64,000 nt of DNA from an uncultured virus (IMG/VR IMGVR_UViG_3300045731_000049) (taxonomy: Duplodnaviria; Heunggongvirae; Uroviricota; Caudoviricetes): the IMG/VR virus record IMGVR_UViG_3300045731_000049. One strand, given 5' to 3'. Below, piece after piece: positions 52,742 through 60,991 of the stretch. Below the pieces are notes generated by a model. It had not been told where the DNA came from, made no database searches, and saw only the letters and a list, made by a program, of their open reading frames with translations. The first letter of the stretch is position 1; each line of letters opens with the position of its first letter. A program made the position numbers and the translations under genes.

Positions 52742-52919
52742 TGGCGATTGTGTAGTTTGGGCTATGTTTCATTGAAAGTAGCCCGGAGGCGGTCAATTTA
52801 CAAGGTAGTCGGAAATGTATAGCAGACCGTCTTGCGGACATCGTCCGACCGAAACGCCTGTTTTCAACGACACTTGCGAGATCCGCAGTTACGATGGTTC
52901 CAATATTCGGATATCGTTT

Positions 52920-54716
52920 ATGACTGAAAGCCTCGACATACAGAAGAAAGCCGTCCTTCGTCTGCTGCACGCCTATGCTCCACAGAATGAGAAGGTGGAC
53001 CCACTTCTCGTGGTGTCGCTCGGACGAGTCTTGCTCAAGGGCGCAAAACGCAACGAGGACATCCATTCACTCGTAACAGGTGATCAAGTCCGTCACATAT
53101 ACGACTGGCTGAAGGCCGAAGTCTTAAACGGAGCGGAATGGCTGTCGAATTGCGATGAGAAAGGACGTCCGAGGAAGCTGCTCAAGTTCGGGTCCGTCGC
53201 TCAGATCGTTCAGGAAGCGGACCAGGCCATGGAAAAGGCCAACCAGGGCACAGGCAAGGTTTCTCTGATCGAAGGCGATGAAGTCCTCATTGCAGAACTG
53301 GAAGACGGCTACTCGCTCGTTCGGATGCTCACACCTGCAGCGCTCGACCGCGAGAGCCAAGTTATGCAGCACTGCATCGGAAATGGCGGTTACGACGACG
53401 AGCTTACAAAAGAATGGGCGAGATTTCTTTCTCTGAGGGACGCTTCAGGTAACCCTCATGTTACCATGGACATCTCAATTAACGATGATCGGATGAATAT
53501 TAATCAGATCAAGGGGAAACAGAATGCGGTGCCAATCGCCAAATATCTGTCGATTCTTCGCCCATGGTTTGCAGAAATGAAAGCTACTCTGACCTACATG
53601 CCAGAACGAGGGTTAATGGTTTCGTCGAATGAAGAAATTTATCACGCCAGCGAGCTGCCAGATGACTTCGAATGCAAAAGAGATTTTCGAGCACATGAAT
53701 TGGAGGGGGCTAGGATTCCAGAACGTCTTAAAGTTCATGGACATATGAGCATTATCAGCTACGACGGCGAGAACACTCAAAGTCATCTCCCCGAGGGGCT
53801 GTATGTCGGCGGGGATTTAACGATCAGGTCTCCTATGATCGAGGTAATTTCCAAAAATACGACAGTCAAAGGCACACTGCGAGCGAGCTGTTCAAATATC
53901 TCCGCAATCGGAGAGGGCCTTACTGTCTTTGGCGATTGTTATTTGGCGAACACAAAAATCGAAAAGCTTCCTTCCAAATTAACCGTCATCGGGAAGTTAT
54001 TCATCGGCGAAACCCAAGTCAAAGAAATTGGAGAATCCGTAATATTCAGCTCGCTCGATGCCTCAGGAAGCTATCTGGATGCGGTTCCTACGCACATCAA
54101 AGAGTATGATGAACTGAAGATAGACGGGACATCAGTCAAAGGCCTCCCGGAAGGACTATCAATTTCAAGATTTAGTGCTACAAATGTCGATTTTGCTAGT
54201 TTTCCAGAAAATCTCCGAGTTGAAGATGATTTGATACTTTATCGTGCCAATATCCCGGTGTTGTTCGACACATTAAAACTCCCTCTTGATTCCTGTTTTG
54301 CTGTATCAAAGATCGGGGAAATGCGCGGTGATATCGTGTTTGAAGGCCCTATTCGTAACAGCGTAGATTTTACGGATGCAAAAATAGGCAAGCTGCCAGA
54401 TAGCATAACCGTAATTGATGGTGATCTCATATTGAATGGAACGGATATCTCTACACTTCCTAGAAAATTGCATGTTACCCATAATATTGATCTGCTGCAC
54501 ATGGAAAATCTCAAGGAATTACCATCTGATTGTGAGTTGTCATGTGAAAAATTGTTATTGGACCATGATTCAAAATTCGAAATACCAAAACATTGGAAAG
54601 TGAAGACAGTTGCTCTTGTGGGTGGTGGCGAATACGAAACGACTATGACTGCCGAGGAGTATCGGCAAAGGGTTCGGAAAGAATTTGCTATGTTGGAATC
54701 GACATTGAAATTCTGA
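52920..54716 (+). CDS. PcfJ-domain protein with C-terminal LRR-like repeats
   Basis: ALDRESQVMQHCIG...SLRDASGNPHVT...QIKGKQN, then LP.GL.V.G.L repeats; start inferred at ATG 52920. Confidence 0.75.
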   Translation: MTESLDIQKKAVLRLLHAYAPQNEKVDPLLVVSLGRVLLKGAKRNEDIHSLVTGDQVRHIYDWLKAEVLNGAEWLSNCDEKGRPRKLLKFGSVAQIVQEADQAMEKANQGTGKVSLIEGDEVLIAELEDGYSLVRMLTPAALDRESQVMQHCIGNGGYDDELTKEWARFLSLRDASGNPHVTMDISINDDRMNINQIKGKQNAVPIAKYLSILRPWFAEMKATLTYMPERGLMVSSNEEIYHASELPDDFECKRDFRAHELEGARIPERLKVHGHMSIISYDGENTQSHLPEGLYVGGDLTIRSPMIEVISKNTTVKGTLRASCSNISAIGEGLTVFGDCYLANTKIEKLPSKLTVIGKLFIGETQVKEIGESVIFSSLDASGSYLDAVPTHIKEYDELKIDGTSVKGLPEGLSISRFSATNVDFASFPENLRVEDDLILYRANIPVLFDTLKLPLDSCFAVSKIGEMRGDIVFEGPIRNSVDFTDAKIGKLPDSITVIDGDLILNGTDISTLPRKLHVTHNIDLLHMENLKELPSDCELSCEKLLLDHDSKFEIPKHWKVKTVALVGGGEYETTMTAEEYRQRVRKEFAMLESTLKF

Positions 54717-54768
54717 ATTTTCTATTTCTTTATGAATATATGTCAGTTAACATTATTGTACACCGCAG

Positions 54769-54915
54769 GGCTATCCGACATCTGAGGTTGATGCAGGTTC
54801 CTGGTTCAACGCTCCATACCTGCCAGATGCAATTGCGTCTGGCCCAGCAGAGGAAGCTCCACAGGCGTTGATGGGAATAATTACTCCCATCCGTTCGGGC
54901 ATAGCCTGCCCTACG
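54769..54915 (-). ncRNA. predicted TnpB omega-RNA scaffold overlapping the tnpB 3' end
   Basis: Hairpins GGGCA-GGCTA-TGCCC, GATGGGA...TCCCATC and GCCAGA...TCTGGC; ACGCCTGTGGAG...GAACCAGGAA motifs resembling those at tnpB 3' ends; 5' boundary uncertain. Confidence 0.6.
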
Positions 54916-56027
54916 TAATTTAATCCATAATTGCGCAGATTAAGCGCTGCATTGAAGTCGCGATCCGCGACATTTCCACACGAAGCGCACCGATAGGTGC
55001 GTTCGTGAAGACGGAGACGGTCTTCTCCGCTTCTGATATTTCCGCAGGATGAACATTTCTGGGTCGATGGTTCAAACCGACCGACTTTGATATGTTGCTT
55101 ACCCGCCCATTCAGCCTTATAGCTGATCTGCCGTAATGCTTCTCCCCATCCTGCATCGGAGATGGAACGAGATAGGCGCTTGTTCTTCAGCATGCCCTGG
55201 ACGTTCAGATCTTCTGTCACAATGACATCGGCCCGACGAACCAAAGCTGTCGTCGCCTGATGCAGAGCATCAGAGCGATAGTCAGCCACTTTGGCATGAA
55301 GAACAGCTACACGAGCCGCCTGACGGCGTCTGTTGGCACTGTTCTTCTGCCGTCGCGCCAGGATGCGCTGCGCGCGTCTCAGGCGCTTCTGTGTCTTGCT
55401 CAACTTGCGTGGGTTGGAAACACCCACGCCATCAGAACTGGCCATCAGTGATGCAAGGCCTAAATCAACGCCGATCACATTCTTGATCGGGAGGGATGAT
55501 ACATCTGGAACATCAATGTCCTGTTCCACCTCACACTGAACGACACACCACCATGTTCCAGCCCTTTGTGAGACTGTCGCAGATAAAATCCGGCCTTCTG
55601 GAAGCCGTCCCGCACGAAACTTCACACCCTGCTTCATTTTAGGCAGAACAACGCGACTGTTCTCGATGCGCAGGCTTTGATTAGCTATATAAAAAGCTTC
55701 TCTCGAAATACCACGCTTCTTGAAACGGGGAAAACCTGCGCCTTCCTTGAAGCATTTTTTCAGCGCCTGATCCAGATTCCGACAAACCCGTTGCAGAGAA
55801 TTGGATGGTGCATCAGCAAGCCATGGATTTTCAACCTTCAGAGTGGGTAAGAGTTGATCCATTTCAAAACGGAAAATGAATTTCTTTTCCGCTTCGTATT
55901 TCTTCTGCTGAAGATCGAGCAGGTAATTCCATAACCAACGGCATGATCCAGCGAAGCGTGCCAACATATCCGCCTGTTCCACAGTCGGATATAACTTCAG
56001 CCTGTATGCTTTCTGGATTAATGCCAA
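54771..56027 (-). CDS. tnpB: RNA-guided endonuclease TnpB
   Basis: AYRLKLYPT HTH, RuvC motifs GVDLG / TEDL / DRDFNAA, CSSC...CASC zinc finger; stop codon lies inside the TIR. Confidence 0.95.
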   Translation of the reverse strand: MALIQKAYRLKLYPTVEQADMLARFAGSCRWLWNYLLDLQQKKYEAEKKFIFRFEMDQLLPTLKVENPWLADAPSNSLQRVCRNLDQALKKCFKEGAGFPRFKKRGISREAFYIANQSLRIENSRVVLPKMKQGVKFRAGRLPEGRILSATVSQRAGTWWCVVQCEVEQDIDVPDVSSLPIKNVIGVDLGLASLMASSDGVGVSNPRKLSKTQKRLRRAQRILARRQKNSANRRRQAARVAVLHAKVADYRSDALHQATTALVRRADVIVTEDLNVQGMLKNKRLSRSISDAGWGEALRQISYKAEWAGKQHIKVGRFEPSTQKCSSCGNIRSGEDRLRLHERTYRCASCGNVADRDFNAALNLRNYGLNYVGQAMPERMGVIIPINACGASSAGPDAIASGRYGALNQEPASTSDVG

Positions 56028-56127
56028 TGATTAAGATTCTCGGTTTGTTCAAAGCCAGAACTGAGCTCATCAGCTCGATATGTCAAGAGCATAAAACTGG
56101 TCCATCAACCTCAGATGTCGGATAGCC

Positions 56128-56262
56128 CACCGCAGTAAACGGACAGCAACGGGACTACAAAGAACCAGCGGCGAGAGCAATAAGCTCAGTGAAATGTACA
56201 TCTCACTCTTGCAGTGGTGTCTAAACCTCCGTTCAATGTAAAAGGCTCCTTCGGGAGCCTTT
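56128..56262 (+). ncRNA. candidate structured ncRNA interrupted near its 5' end by the TnpB element
   Basis: ORF-free; hairpins GAGC-AATAA-GCTC and AGTGA...TCACT; AACGGA/TCCGTT pairing; ends in a UUCG terminator. Confidence 0.4.
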
Positions 56263-57030: not shown

Positions 57031-58314
57031 TTAAAACGCAATCTCGAAATCCGCCACCAGTGCAAGTTTTTCGGTTCGTTCGATCAATGCCTTTGAATAA
57101 TCATCCGGCATCGGAAGTTCTTTCAGCAAATCTCGCCATTGGTCAGCGGCCTGTTCGACGACGATCTTGACTTCCTTATCCAGTCTCTTTTGAGGAACGT
57201 CGCAGAATGAGGCAAGTTTACGAAACCGATTGAGTGCTAAAATCTCACTGTTGTGAGTATTTCTGAACCGTAGTGCCATATCATTACGCCTGTCATAGAC
57301 ATAGCTCGCTACAATATCATAGGCGGGGCTGAGCTTCCCTTCTGATGCTTCTGGATACCACAGAGACCAGTTCTTCAAGTGAGCGTCAGTGTTTCCCATC
57401 AACACATTTGCCGCCACTCTTCTGACAGCTTGCAGAAAAGCTTCAGTTCCGCCACCGAGACGGTTCGCAATGTTTACGACTGTTTCTTCGTTCGCGGCCG
57501 TATATTTTCTCGTGGGCTGCTCGCCTAAAATCTGTAAAAAGTCTTCCATATGCACACGCTGACCGTCAGGTGTACGATCAAATCGTTGTACAGCTAATAC
57601 CAGATCGCCACCTTTTAGGATGTCCTCATCAAGACCACTGATTTCCTTGGTGGAAACAAGGTCCATTTGAGGAATGGTAATGCCAACAGCTTCGGCCAGC
57701 TTCATAGACGAAAACTCGACTTCGGGAAGATTTCGGAACTTTTCGCTTGGCAACTTGGCTACGATGTTTCCGTGTTCGCCAACAGCAGGAAACGTCAATC
57801 GTTCACCCTGCTTTAGCATTGACATCTTCAACTGAACGCCAGCTAGCGAAAAACGGATGCCGGATTGTCTTTCGACTTCGTCAGATAACATAAACTCGAC
57901 TTCAGTTCCTTCTTCTGGTCGCACAATTACAGCACCAGGCAAATCTTCGCCGAGCCACGCCAACACATCGTAATCAGACGTGTGTCCAGTAGGCATCCCG
58001 CGCATTACCATGTCTCTTAGAGCGCCTTCAGGAAGAAGGTTTGAGAACCATGCCGGAATTTCCCTGCCTGCTTGAACCATCGGACCAGCGCGCAAAAGTT
58101 CAACTGTTTCCTCTTCATTGCCGTAGCGGAGTAGCGACGAGCTCAGCAAAGGACGGTTTGAACCTAGCTCAATGTAAGATTCATCAATATCGAAGCGTAC
58201 GATGTTACGGGCATCCCGAGTAAGCGAGCCGACGCGCACTTCCTCGCCACCAGCCTGAAGATAGATACCAAGAACCTCAAATCTGCTCACGTACGAACTC
58301 CGTTTAACGATCAA
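57031..58314 (-). CDS. hipA: HipA-family Ser/Thr kinase toxin
   Basis: FSNLLPEG, FSLAGVQLK, QRFDR, HMEDF, GNTDAHLKNWS, LSPAYD. Confidence 0.92.
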   Translation of the reverse strand: MIVKRSSYVSRFEVLGIYLQAGGEEVRVGSLTRDARNIVRFDIDESYIELGSNRPLLSSSLLRYGNEEETVELLRAGPMVQAGREIPAWFSNLLPEGALRDMVMRGMPTGHTSDYDVLAWLGEDLPGAVIVRPEEGTEVEFMLSDEVERQSGIRFSLAGVQLKMSMLKQGERLTFPAVGEHGNIVAKLPSEKFRNLPEVEFSSMKLAEAVGITIPQMDLVSTKEISGLDEDILKGGDLVLAVQRFDRTPDGQRVHMEDFLQILGEQPTRKYTAANEETVVNIANRLGGGTEAFLQAVRRVAANVLMGNTDAHLKNWSLWYPEASEGKLSPAYDIVASYVYDRRNDMALRFRNTHNSEILALNRFRKLASFCDVPQKRLDKEVKIVVEQAADQWRDLLKELPMPDDYSKALIERTEKLALVADFEIAF

Positions 58315-58619
58315 TCATCATCACTATCAGGAATGAAGAGTTCATCCCGAACGCTTTTCACTGGGCTGTAGGTCTTGTTCTTAGGATCGAGATGACCGTT
58401 TACCATTTCCTGTACAGAACCAATGATCCTTTTAGGAACGAGAACAAAATCAGCGTTCAATGCAGCAATTAAGCTCATCAATGTCGAAACTTCGACGTTT
58501 GCTTTTCCGCTTTCAATTCTGGAAATGTCTCCTTGATGGATACCAGAAATTTCAGCTAATTGTTTTTGCGTCCATCCTTTGGCCTTACGCAACTTCCGGA
58601 TATCATTCAGAAAATTCAT
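58311..58619 (-). CDS. hipB: HipB-like XRE HTH antitoxin
   Basis: RKAKGWTQKQLAEISGIHQGDISRIESG; overlaps the hipA start; GGAGG RBS. Confidence 0.85.
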   Translation of the reverse strand: MNFLNDIRKLRKAKGWTQKQLAEISGIHQGDISRIESGKANVEVSTLMSLIAALNADFVLVPKRIIGSVQEMVNGHLDPKNKTYSPVKSVRDELFIPDSDDD

Positions 58620-58861
58620 GCACAGGCCTCCTTTGCTGCCATCATATAGCTTATACGCCATACTATGTCAATATTATAGGTTTTAAGCCATACCGAGAAA
58701 CCAAGGGAACATGTATCTAAATACAACATCCATGCTTACTATTGAGTGTCGTTCGCAAATTCATCAAATGAATGCCCCATAAAAGATAATTCATAAAGCC
58801 ATAAATCCTGAAATTAAAAGAACAAAAGAATTGACAAACTTATATTTCAGAAACTCTAATA

Positions 58862-60991
58862 ATGCAGGATTTAAGGAAAATTGCCATGATTTATGAAATT
58901 GAAAATATTCGTGATATCAACACCGATGTCTATTCAACGGATAAGGTGCCATTGGACGAAACATTACAGAGAATATCCAATGGGCAGATTCAGTTGCCAA
59001 ACTTTCAAAGATCATGGAAATGGAACAATGAACCTATCGTCAAATTGATTGAATCAGTAACCGAGTGTGCTCCCATTGGCACAATTATGTTCATTGAAAC
59101 GGGTGGCGAGTCTCGTTTTGACTGCATACCGATTAATTCTGTCGACTTGATTAAGGTAAAAGACGTTCGTCCTGATATGCTCGCAATGGACGGACAACAA
59201 CGACTAACATCTTTGTATCAGGTACTATATTCCCATAAACCTGTCGTGATTAATCATGAGCGCAAAAAGCCGGAATACCGCTATTATTTTATGGATATGT
59301 GTAAGGCGCTCGATGCTAACGTCGAATTACGGGATGCAATCATTTCATTGAAAGTTGACGAAAACGGAACGCCACTTAAGGGGGAAGTCGACTACACCGA
59401 TCTTAGAATTCAATGCGAGCGGGGTGTATTCCCTCTCAACATGACATTCCGAATGGCAGAATGGGAATCCAAGATTCTTGAGAATATTAAGCTGTTCGAT
59501 ATGAACGGTTTGGAAATTGAGTTATTTAATAAGACAGCGATGCTTTTCAGAGAAAAAACCATCAAAGGCTTCGTGAAGGCTACTTTACCAGTAATTGTGC
59601 TTAGAAAACATATTACTCTGGGTTCGCTTTCTAAGCTCTATGAAAAGATTAACTCAATTGGCGTTCCCTTGAATGCTTTTGATCTACTGATCGCTCGCTA
59701 CGCGGCCCAAGGCTTCAATCTAAGGGAATCCTGGGGCGAGATTCAGGGCGAACTTGAAAAGGGGAACAAAAACCTACGGAAGAAAATCGCAGAGAGCCCA
59801 TTTCTTCTGAGCGTTCTTTTATACACGACGATCCTTGAGGAACGGAGCCTAGCAGCAACAAAGGGCGCAATTCTCGGATTAACCCTTGAGGACTTTAAAA
59901 AACATAAAGATACCGTGGTAAAAGGATACATCGAAGCAATTAGATATCTTCATTTGAAGAAGCTTGCTACCTCGAAGGAACTTCCTGCAAATACTCTCAT
60001 TTCAACTATGGCTCTGGTTCATTCTCTTCTTGGCAAAGAAGCTAGAGATCATCAAGTGATGAAGAAAATCGATCAATGGTTCTGGACCATCAGTCTGACG
60101 GGCTTCCATTTGAATAAGCCAACTGTCATCGCAGCAGACATTATCACTTTGCTTAAGTGGGCGCGGGGGACATCAGACACGCTCCCTTATGCAATGAGAA
60201 CCGCTCAGTTTATCGATGTGAACATTTCACGTTACACGAAAGGCGGAGCAATGACCTCAAGGTGTATTTCCGCCGCCTTAATGGCTTCTGTGGAGGACTT
60301 TATTACAGGATCGTCAGTAAATGATCATATAGTTGCTGATGACGGTTTTGATGTACACCATATTTTCCCCGCCAGCTGGTGTAAGGACAATAACATACAG
60401 CAGGAGCGCCGTGATAGTGTTGTTAACAAGACTCCGCTTTCGAAGTCAACGAATAGATATATTGGTGGCCATGCTCCCTCTACTTATATTGAGTACATTA
60501 AGAACGATACGAAAGTTCCTGACAACTTGATCAAGAAACGTGTAGAAAGTCACGGAATCAACTATGAACACCTAATCGCAGATGATTTTGATGCTTTCTT
60601 TTATGAGCGGGAGGCATTTATTTATGACACCATTGAAAAGCTGACTGGTATTTCTGTTATTCGAAGCGAGGAGGGCGGTCAGCGAATTCAGTTAAATTCC
60701 AGAGGCATTACCGTTAATGCGGTTAGAGGAACACACAACACTGTTGTCGTTTTACCTGGTTCAACGATGACGAGAGATCATAATCCAGGACTTCGGGAAG
60801 GTTACGTTGATTTTCGCGAACGGCTGATACAAGGCAAGGATGTGATGCTGAATCCAGATGGCCTATACGAAGTCCTCAATCCTATTCCAATGGAATCGCC
60901 AAGTTATGCTGGTTCCGTTTTGTCCGGTCGAATGACTAATCTTGAAGATTGGAAAGTTCTGACGGAGGATGAAGACGAAGCTGAAGATTAA
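58862..60991 (+). CDS. GmrSD-family restriction protein (DUF262 + DUF1524/HNH) with C-terminal DUF4357/RAMA-like domain
   Basis: LPNFQRSWKW, DGQQRLTSL, DVHHIFP...N.TPL...N, and VVLPGS...SPSYAGSVLSGR...WK. Confidence 0.85.
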   Translation: MQDLRKIAMIYEIENIRDINTDVYSTDKVPLDETLQRISNGQIQLPNFQRSWKWNNEPIVKLIESVTECAPIGTIMFIETGGESRFDCIPINSVDLIKVKDVRPDMLAMDGQQRLTSLYQVLYSHKPVVINHERKKPEYRYYFMDMCKALDANVELRDAIISLKVDENGTPLKGEVDYTDLRIQCERGVFPLNMTFRMAEWESKILENIKLFDMNGLEIELFNKTAMLFREKTIKGFVKATLPVIVLRKHITLGSLSKLYEKINSIGVPLNAFDLLIARYAAQGFNLRESWGEIQGELEKGNKNLRKKIAESPFLLSVLLYTTILEERSLAATKGAILGLTLEDFKKHKDTVVKGYIEAIRYLHLKKLATSKELPANTLISTMALVHSLLGKEARDHQVMKKIDQWFWTISLTGFHLNKPTVIAADIITLLKWARGTSDTLPYAMRTAQFIDVNISRYTKGGAMTSRCISAALMASVEDFITGSSVNDHIVADDGFDVHHIFPASWCKDNNIQQERRDSVVNKTPLSKSTNRYIGGHAPSTYIEYIKNDTKVPDNLIKKRVESHGINYEHLIADDFDAFFYEREAFIYDTIEKLTGISVIRSEEGGQRIQLNSRGITVNAVRGTHNTVVVLPGSTMTRDHNPGLREGYVDFRERLIQGKDVMLNPDGLYEVLNPIPMESPSYAGSVLSGRMTNLEDWKVLTEDEDEAED

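Follow-up and report, generated by a model that had tools for sequence, protein, structure and literature searches.

A 1,359-bp element carrying tnpB as its sole gene lies at 54769-56127 in the 64,000-nucleotide stretch of DNA analysed here, the uncultured virus record IMGVR_UViG_3300045731_000049 of IMG/VR (hereafter, the window). The gene is encoded by the minus strand, and the left and right ends are defined in this orientation as the ends located upstream and downstream of tnpB, respectively. The element is bounded by a perfect 25-bp terminal inverted repeat (TIR), GGCTATCCGACATCTGAGGTTGATG, that gives two matches within the window vs none expected from 100 shuffles; on the minus strand, its right arm reads CATCAACCTCAGATGTCGGATAGCC. 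Both ends are flanked by the same 8-bp sequence in direct orientation, which reads CTGCGGTG on the minus strand. The right copy of this duplication is followed by TACAATAATGTT, and the left one is preceded by ...CCGTTTA, as had been pointed out in an earlier reading of the same sequence (hereafter, the original prediction). The G+C content of the element is 50.4%, vs 44.3% for the window. The TIRs and the 8-bp duplication are real, since copies from a Mesorhizobium genome and from metagenomes share these ends and are each flanked by a different 8-bp duplication. The features of the element and of its flanks are listed in Table 1.

Table 1. Coordinates of the tnpB element, of its predicted guide RNA (omega-RNA) and of the flanking sequences in the window. 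TAM, target-adjacent motif; dN and dS, non-synonymous and synonymous divergence.
Feature	Position	Strand	Basis
Right flank TACAATAATGTT; candidate remainder of the guide	54749..54760	-	Sequence; 18-mer made of duplication and flank occurs once within the window
Right target duplication; candidate first 8 nt of the guide	54761..54768	-	Position of the TAM-like motif
Right TIR; also putative 3' end of the scaffold	54769..54793	-	Outer 23 nt unchanged in 7 of 8 copies
Putative omega-RNA scaffold, reaching the last base of the element	54769..54925	-	Folding, covariation, low dS, shared motifs
tnpB open reading frame, 418 codons	54771..56027	-	Pfam, NCBIfam, alignment, dN/dS
Predicted terminal hairpin (helix 10), formed by internal CCUGCAUC and by GAUGUCGG of the right TIR	54775..54797	-	Weak support
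Scaffold hairpin GCCAGACGCAAUUGCAUCUGGC (helix 9), 22-nt palindrome	54822..54843	-	Three pairs changed on both sides
Scaffold hairpin GAUGGGAGUAAUUAUUCCCAUC (helix 6)	54870..54891	-	Two pairs changed on both sides
Hairpin GGGCA-GGCUA-UGCCC (helix 5)	54897..54911	-	Loop and closing U complementary to the tip of the element
Left TIR, 25 bp, perfect match to the right TIR	56103..56127	-	Inverted-repeat search, shuffles
Left target duplication CTGCGGTG	56128..56135	-	Direct repeat; different 8-mer in every other copy
TAM-like TTTA, external to the element and directly 5' of the left duplication	56136..56139	-	Six-copy comparison

A scan of one genome per species detected three copies of the element in Mesorhizobium sp. 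SP-1A (G001; protein identity 85-87%), and a scan of metagenomes with a degenerate pattern of the ends detected eight stretches. The metagenomic sequences include two full copies, one carried by the overlapping stretches L021 and L022 and the second one by L024, as well as a copy with a decayed left end (L025) and a truncated right end (L026). Six copies, including that of the window, share their ends and are flanked by six different 8-bp duplications (CTGCGGTG, CAATTTGC, AATTAAGC, ATGCTGGT, AATCGCAA and AATGAGAA). The copies are 80-95% identical to each other, which indicates that they derive from old, separate insertions. In samples of 401 genomes each (the order by DNA, the family by protein, the order with a 59%-identical relative and the family with the partner protein described below), close copies were found only in G001. 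No near DNA match was found in plasmids or phages; the relatives of the protein encoded by plasmids share at most 41% identity with it, and a profile search of viral contigs retrieved only relatives sharing at most 40% identity. The single match of the end pattern in viral contigs lies inside phage structural genes and was rejected as a chance match.

The window stretch is present in 24 ant-metagenome runs. Contigs from four ant-metagenome runs, three of them RNA libraries and one a DNA library, were aligned; such contigs show presence only. The element is fragmented and multi-copy in these runs, and two further right flanks were found in runs X20 and X1. In the X20 copy (region of window position 54785; protein P0121), a 10-nt deletion inside the right TIR removes the stop codon of tnpB, so that the open reading frame continues into a different flank. 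A solo right end of a TnpB element, consisting of 254 bp of scaffold and repeat, lies at L026:2601-2853. A 596-kb metagenome contig carries this solo end together with full TnpB copies and with the element L023 (2601-3901), which is considered below.

The product of tnpB matches the Pfam domains HTH_OrfB_IS605 (E-value 8e-17), OrfB_IS605 (5.5e-24) and Cas12f1-like_TNB, a zinc ribbon (3e-20), and the NCBIfam family guided_TnpB with 319 bits for a cut-off of 100. The residues D188, E272 and D357 and the zinc-finger cysteines C325, C328, C347 and C350 are invariant among 24 sequences, and ADRDFNAALN represents a DRDxN-type motif. About 45 proteins (P0121-P0166), with identities of 45-93%, make up this TnpB clade. 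The dN/dS ratio of the core is 0.11 over 362 codons with a dS of 0.81-0.87 (window vs L001 and window vs L002), a calculation that includes three copies (window, L001 and L002) and leaves out L021 and L024. Judged by its sequence, this TnpB is canonical, intact, subject to purifying selection and functional. It is therefore extremely improbable that TnpB is an inert, decaying passenger and that the structure of its tail only serves the end of the transposon. Such a view could invoke the copy L003:4001-5256 of G001, whose tnpB is split into two frames by a frameshift while its ends and its duplication are intact; yet it conflicts with the low dN/dS, with the invariance of the catalytic residues in the 24 relatives and with compensatory changes in hairpins located well inside the boundary of the 25-bp repeat.

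The catalytic core of TnpB (approximately residues 1-368) ends about 155 nt from the end of the element. The last ~50 codons of tnpB overlap the predicted omega-RNA scaffold and the right TIR, whose TAG is the stop codon. Beyond the core, relatives sharing as little as 49% identity conserve the peptide VGQAMPE, the codons of which form the hairpin GGGCAGGCUAUGCCC; in such relatives, the open reading frame stops 8-10 codons after a KQE motif and its tail resembles the repeat-encoded one. The right part of the element reads exactly as the original prediction had described it, with hairpins running unbroken into the TIR and then the duplication and the flank: ACGCCTGTGGAG (54857-54868) is followed by the 22-nt palindromic hairpin, by GAACCAGGAA (54798-54807) and by the right TIR. 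None of 200 shuffles folds as well as the terminal 157 nt of the element (z = -2.93). In an alignment of eight right ends, six pairs changed on both sides, vs 0-1 when the partners are slid, and these changes are concentrated in helices 6 and 9. In the two comparisons involving the window copy, the dS of the last 52 codons is 0.14-0.26, vs 0.81-0.87 in the core, the synonymous sites of the tail being 3-6 times more conserved than those of the core; between L001 and L002, it is 0.19 in the tail vs 0.32 in the core. The low dS of the tail points to a constraint on the nucleotides themselves, acting at the RNA or DNA level.

Two further features would link the right TIR to the predicted fold. The loop and closing U of helix 5 (GGCUAU) are complementary to the six terminal nucleotides of the element (AUAGCC), and GGCTAT is located 135-138 nt from the right end in all seven copies compared, so that a pseudoknot between GGCUAU and AUAGCC is possible; according to the review PMC13565253, the scaffolds of prokaryotic systems engage their 3' end in a pseudoknot with another of their segments. 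Among the seven pairs of the predicted terminal hairpin, two show one-sided changes that keep the pairing and one is broken in one copy, and the sister elements that share these ends do not carry any CCUGCAUC-like complement at that place. The left TIR shows nine changes over seven copies, five of them in L025. The tail has GCCTGTGGAG and TTGAAGCAGGAACC (form TTGAA(C/G)CAGGAACC) in common with the 3' region of insQ, a TnpB element of E. coli. Comparison of empty and filled plasmids (TP114, L038:2655-2740) maps the right end of insQ just after ...GGAGGATGTCAA. This mapped end corresponds to the boundary between scaffold and guide for a common enterobacterial TnpB homologue. Nucleotide alignments with the E. 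coli and Deinococcus homologues are poor, being anchored only by the two short motifs. No Rfam family matches the tail, and no terminator-like site was found on the minus strand between the element and 54500. Contigs from RNA libraries (X19 record 8 and X21 record 25) span the flank, the repeat and the scaffold; they may derive from carried-in DNA and are uninformative on transcription and RNA ends.

The four bases located directly 5' of the left duplication (tnpB sense strand) are TTTA in the window and GCTA, TTTA, TTTA, CTTA and TTTA in the five other independent copies with a verified duplication, which come from the Mesorhizobium genome and from metagenomes. Thus, all six copies have TA at positions -2/-1, five have TTA and four have TTTA. 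The motif is found on the tnpB-upstream side in every copy and is one-sided, the four bases located 3' of the right duplication (TACA, GCCC, ATTA, GCTA, TCAA and TGGG) being devoid of any common motif. The six duplications do not share any motif either. Six elements whose ends belong to the same family, but which do not encode this TnpB, were used as controls. At the same position, L014, L015, L023 and L027 read CAAA, CCAA, GTGA and GTCT, and the Rhizobium leguminosarum controls L042 and L075 read TCGT and CGTC. TA is therefore present at -2/-1 in 6/6 TnpB copies vs 0/6 controls (exact probability 1 in 924). L025 was excluded from this count, as its left repeat carries five mismatches or indels and its flanks do not match.

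The original prediction had proposed that a T-rich target-adjacent motif (TAM) lies 5' of the duplication and that the guide consists of the duplication and the right flank, and had suggested comparing the bases upstream of the duplications over many insertions. Over the small sample available, this comparison supports the proposed geometry. The motif resembles TTTAA, TTAAC and TTAC, which the passage of the review PMC13565253 on IS200/IS605 elements gives as known targets of this family. A TAM has to abut directly, on the 5' side, the sequence matched by the guide; since the motif lies just outside the duplication, it fits a guide that would begin with the duplication. Conversely, no TAM would be available to a guide starting downstream of the duplication, as the motif is separated from the right flank sequence by a variable, motif-less octamer.

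Combined with the data concerning the scaffold, these results lead to the following model, for which we consider the odds to be slightly better than even. The element would be a non-autonomous transposon whose sole gene encodes a selectively maintained TnpB, and it would be mobilized in trans by whatever moves the sister elements having the same ends. Transcription of the omega-RNA would cover the 3' end of the gene, cross the right TIR and enter the host flank. The right TIR would act both as the end of the transposon and as the last part of the scaffold, and the guide would start with the 8-nt duplication and continue with the right flank. The TAM would be T-rich (TTTA or TTA) and would be located just 5' of the left duplication, outside of the element. 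In the empty or precisely repaired allele, the TAM, a single copy of the duplication and the right flank would be contiguous and TnpB would cut; repair of the cut allele from a filled copy would then lead to restorative homing or to retention of the element. In the filled allele, only 8 nt would match before the left TIR and this allele would be spared, 8 nt of match being too little for cleavage. The adjacency of the TAM would result from retention, only such copies being kept over time. TnpB-driven restorative homing is reportedly the subject of an experimental paper by Meers et al. (2023).

Several points weigh against this model. The comparison of the motif is small (six copies and six controls), and the excluded copy L025, taken at face value, would read GTTA or GGTT. 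In three of the six copies (L002, L003 and L024), TTTA is located 3' of a GC-rich terminator-like hairpin, and a liking for terminator-like sites may be part of the motif signal. In its extreme form, the motif would be a mere by-product of the landing site (a T-tract following terminator-like hairpins) or of tolerance, TnpB would be irrelevant to it and the RNA might end at the boundary of the element. The sister element L014, which is inserted inside the T-tract of such a hairpin, goes in the same direction. However, the three other copies are not preceded by any such hairpin, none of the six same-ended controls has TA, and neither the exact register (-2/-1, 6/6) nor the fixed side is expected from a loose preference for terminators; such a preference therefore does not account for these features, and we consider this explanation improbable.

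The structural part of the model also meets difficulties. The two partners of the putative pseudoknot are invariant in all eight copies, so that covariation is silent about it. The GGAACC motif is located 27 nt from the right end here, whereas 72 nt including two hairpins separate it from the right end in the E. coli homologue. This difference indicates that the 3' part of the scaffold has been rebuilt around the end of the transposon, and the competence of such a rebuilt scaffold can only be presumed. Alternatively, the scaffold could end before the TIR, and the TIR would be a fixed guide targeting the ends of sibling or partner elements. The short distance after GGAACC and the higher conservation of the right repeat compared with the left one are in line with this idea. 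Nevertheless, it seems very unlikely: none of the repeat copies, whichever the end and the type of element, is preceded by TTA or TTTA, the motif located outside the duplication would be left unexplained and a self-matching guide would require a protection of its own locus. As for the homing proposed in the model, no joint skipping the element, i.e., no empty allele, was found among the contigs of the four ant-metagenome runs, and homing would find little to restore should the element not be excised by the mobilizing enzyme.

Which enzyme moves the element can be approached through its sisters. In G001, the ends occur as five pairs only, which correspond to the three TnpB elements and to two elements of ~1.96 kb (L014:501-2469 and L015:501-2457). 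The latter are also flanked by 8-bp duplications and their sole gene encodes a protein of 631 or 650 amino acids, hereafter the partner. This protein does not match any Pfam domain over threshold and shows no recognized DDE transposase domain or fold. Its sole NCBIfam match is weak (TIGR01766, TnpB-related, 32.9 bits), and it does not share any pairwise similarity with TnpB except for six residues encoded by the shared repeat. Its group comprises 727 matches, many of them being several per contig in Rhizobium and relatives. D350, E410 and H481 are invariant in 26 sequences, the Asp of RuvC-III thus being replaced by His, and there are no Cys pairs between RuvC-II and RuvC-III, hence no zinc finger. 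An AlphaFold model (predicted local distance difference test score 75.7) has Cas12k, Cas12f, Cas12m and RuvC as its best fold matches, with E-values of 3e-9 to 1e-4 and low template modelling scores (0.14-0.36). According to this model, the partner has a Cas12/TnpB fold and is not a classical transposase.

The partner elements are multi-copy and widespread in Rhizobiales, a protein of 600-650 amino acids being their only gene. Relatives of 1,967 and 1,973 bp with related ends (GGGTATTCGTCACGAACGGTTGA) and 8-bp duplications are carried by a plasmid of R. leguminosarum (L042:1053-3019 and L075:200-2172). No transposase of a known family is encoded between the ends of L014, L015, L042 and L075. 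An element of the partner type, L023:2601-3901, has an internal deletion of ~660 bp, a 403-aa open reading frame and a duplication matching at 7 of 8 positions. A third cargo was found between ends of the same family (L027:642-2623 and L028:313-2034); it encodes a TnpB-like protein of 546-551 amino acids with a zinc finger, and the 8-bp duplication is AAAGAAGG. By sequence reading, the left side of L028 adjoins an IS5-like transposase gene at its C-terminal end. Rhizobium sp. MHM7A encodes both a 54%-identical relative of TnpB, the tail of which is STELSG, and a protein of the partner type, the tail of which is STEVSG; the longest contig is given as 1,458,893 bp for both. This co-occurrence points to an old association between the TnpB elements and the partner. 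No clear inverted ends were found around the partner homologues of Pseudomonas and Thermaerobacter in the stretches examined.

The original prediction attributed the insertion of the element to a DDE transposase. This part is not supported: no such enzyme was found with these ends, but only partner elements encoding a protein of Cas12/TnpB fold. An 8-bp duplication combined with GGCT... ends is reminiscent of the ISL3 family. A transposase of the ISL3 type was rejected as the mobilizing enzyme, as G001 does not encode any ISL3-type DDE domain; the profile search did not include other DDE families. The partner, the sole candidate encoded between these ends, is the probable mobilizing enzyme. 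As a tentative extension, the partner might be the transposase of an unrecognized family of insertion sequences characterized by ~25-bp TIRs and 8-bp duplications. The TnpB elements would then be long-established hitch-hikers whose scaffold is fused to the right end and which would add a TAM-coupled homing or target choice.

In another possible origin of the TAM adjacency, it would arise at insertion rather than by retention. The recognition of the TAM by TnpB would steer the mobilizing enzyme, leading to insertions in a fixed orientation, 8 bp downstream of the TAM, and would thus represent a primitive type of target choice helped by a nuclease. The presence of the motif in all six copies, always on the tnpB-upstream side, and its absence from all six controls agree with such steering. 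Moreover, TTTA is rare by chance, so that pure survivorship would need many lost insertions. The fold matches of the partner include Cas12k of CRISPR-associated transposons, which may reflect the shared Cas12 fold only. On the other hand, a new site cannot be specified by a guide derived from the former flank, leaving the reading of the TAM as the only possible help, and the age of the copies (80-95% alike) suits survivorship. We know of no TnpB that steers a mobilizing enzyme to TAM sites. Taken as a whole, we regard steering at insertion as unlikely, and retention of TAM-adjacent copies remains the preferred origin of the motif.

TnpBs located between TIRs are already known. The passages of Altae-Tran et al. 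(2023, PNAS, PMC10691335) dealing with them describe groups found with DDE transposases (DDE-1 to DDE-6) and solo TnpBs sharing their ends. The present element resembles both: it carries a prokaryotic TnpB between TIRs, whose 3' end lies less than 250 bp from the end of the transposon, the distance used as a criterion for DDE-associated TnpBs, and, like the solo TnpBs, it has ends in common with another type of element and is presumed to be mobilized in trans. Unlike the DDE elements of these passages, its partner elements do not carry any DDE gene but encode a large TnpB-like protein with a His in RuvC-III and no zinc finger. The same passages do not give any geometry of TAM and duplication. 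The partner itself resembles the RIIIr-4 clade of TnpBs as described there (RuvC-III Asp replaced by His, no C4 zinc finger, Cas12-like fold), a match made by description and not by tree. In the passages of PMC10691335 concerning RIIIr-4, this clade is linked to MazE-like antitoxins, and no TIR element with 8-bp duplications is described.

According to the corresponding section of the review PMC13565253, elements of the IS200/IS605 family do not have TIRs or duplications, carry subterminal hairpins and insert immediately 3' of a tetra- or pentanucleotide. Membership of this family (IS1341-type, tnpB only) is ruled out for the present element by its perfect 25-bp TIRs and by its 8-bp duplications that differ among copies. 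The TnpBs of IS200/IS605 and IS607 elements (ISDra2, IS608), as presented in this review, belong to the same protein family and use a T-rich TAM. Their guide RNA covers the 3' end of the gene and extends into the flanking DNA, as proposed here, and they have likewise been proposed to cut the empty site. The idea of restorative homing is also described in this review. However, the TAM of these elements is the target of their own transposase and directly abuts the left end. Here, in contrast, the TAM is separated from the element by an 8-bp duplication that would be a required part of the guide, and the end of the transposon would make up the last 25 nt of the scaffold.

Fanzor1 proteins, which are found in eukaryotic DDE transposons, offer another comparison. 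In the parts of PMC13565253 and of Bao and Jurka (2013, PMC3627910) devoted to them, they appear as TnpB-family nucleases associated with TIRs and duplications, with a guide RNA running through the end of the element. According to PMC13565253, the TAM includes the 5' duplication, and the 3' copy belongs to the scaffold and does not play any role in target recognition. A geometry of the Fanzor1 type is ruled out here, as the six duplications do not share any motif and the motif is located 5' of them, so that the duplication would have to belong to the guide. A full-text search of the literature did not retrieve any account of a TAM located outside of the duplication or of TIR elements encoding a RIIIr-4-like protein alone; this search did not cover the tables of transposon ends of the 2023 survey. 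What is new in this description is the geometry with the TAM outside of the duplication, together with the TnpB-like partner.

TnpB homing was worked out for elements that excise without any scar and do not generate duplications. In its passage on prokaryotic TnpBs found in TIR elements, a 2026 review (PMC13565253) presents them as rare and uncharacterized and asks whether rigid target recognition could be the reason. If correct, the model proposed here would give an answer to this question: the TAM lies outside of the duplication, the duplication is the seed of the guide and the end of the transposon belongs to the scaffold. The filled site would then be protected by a match limited to 8 nt. 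Same-ended elements with and without this TnpB also form a natural pair whose insertion sites can be directly compared. Furthermore, the partner points to a large multi-copy group of elements in which proteins of Cas12 fold are found alone between inverted repeats.

Within the element, a TTGACA hexamer (56081-56086, minus strand) is located ~20 nt inside the left repeat and is invariant in four aligned copies; a simple promoter scan did not call any promoter at this hexamer. Around the element, the minus strand encodes a HipA-like kinase (57031-58661; Pfam HipA_C and Couple_hipA) with a small open reading frame just upstream, and the plus strand carries a 709-aa open reading frame (58862-60991) and a gene encoding a 633-aa protein with a weak PcfJ-like match (52815-54716). 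The neighbourhood of the element looks like mobile or accessory DNA.

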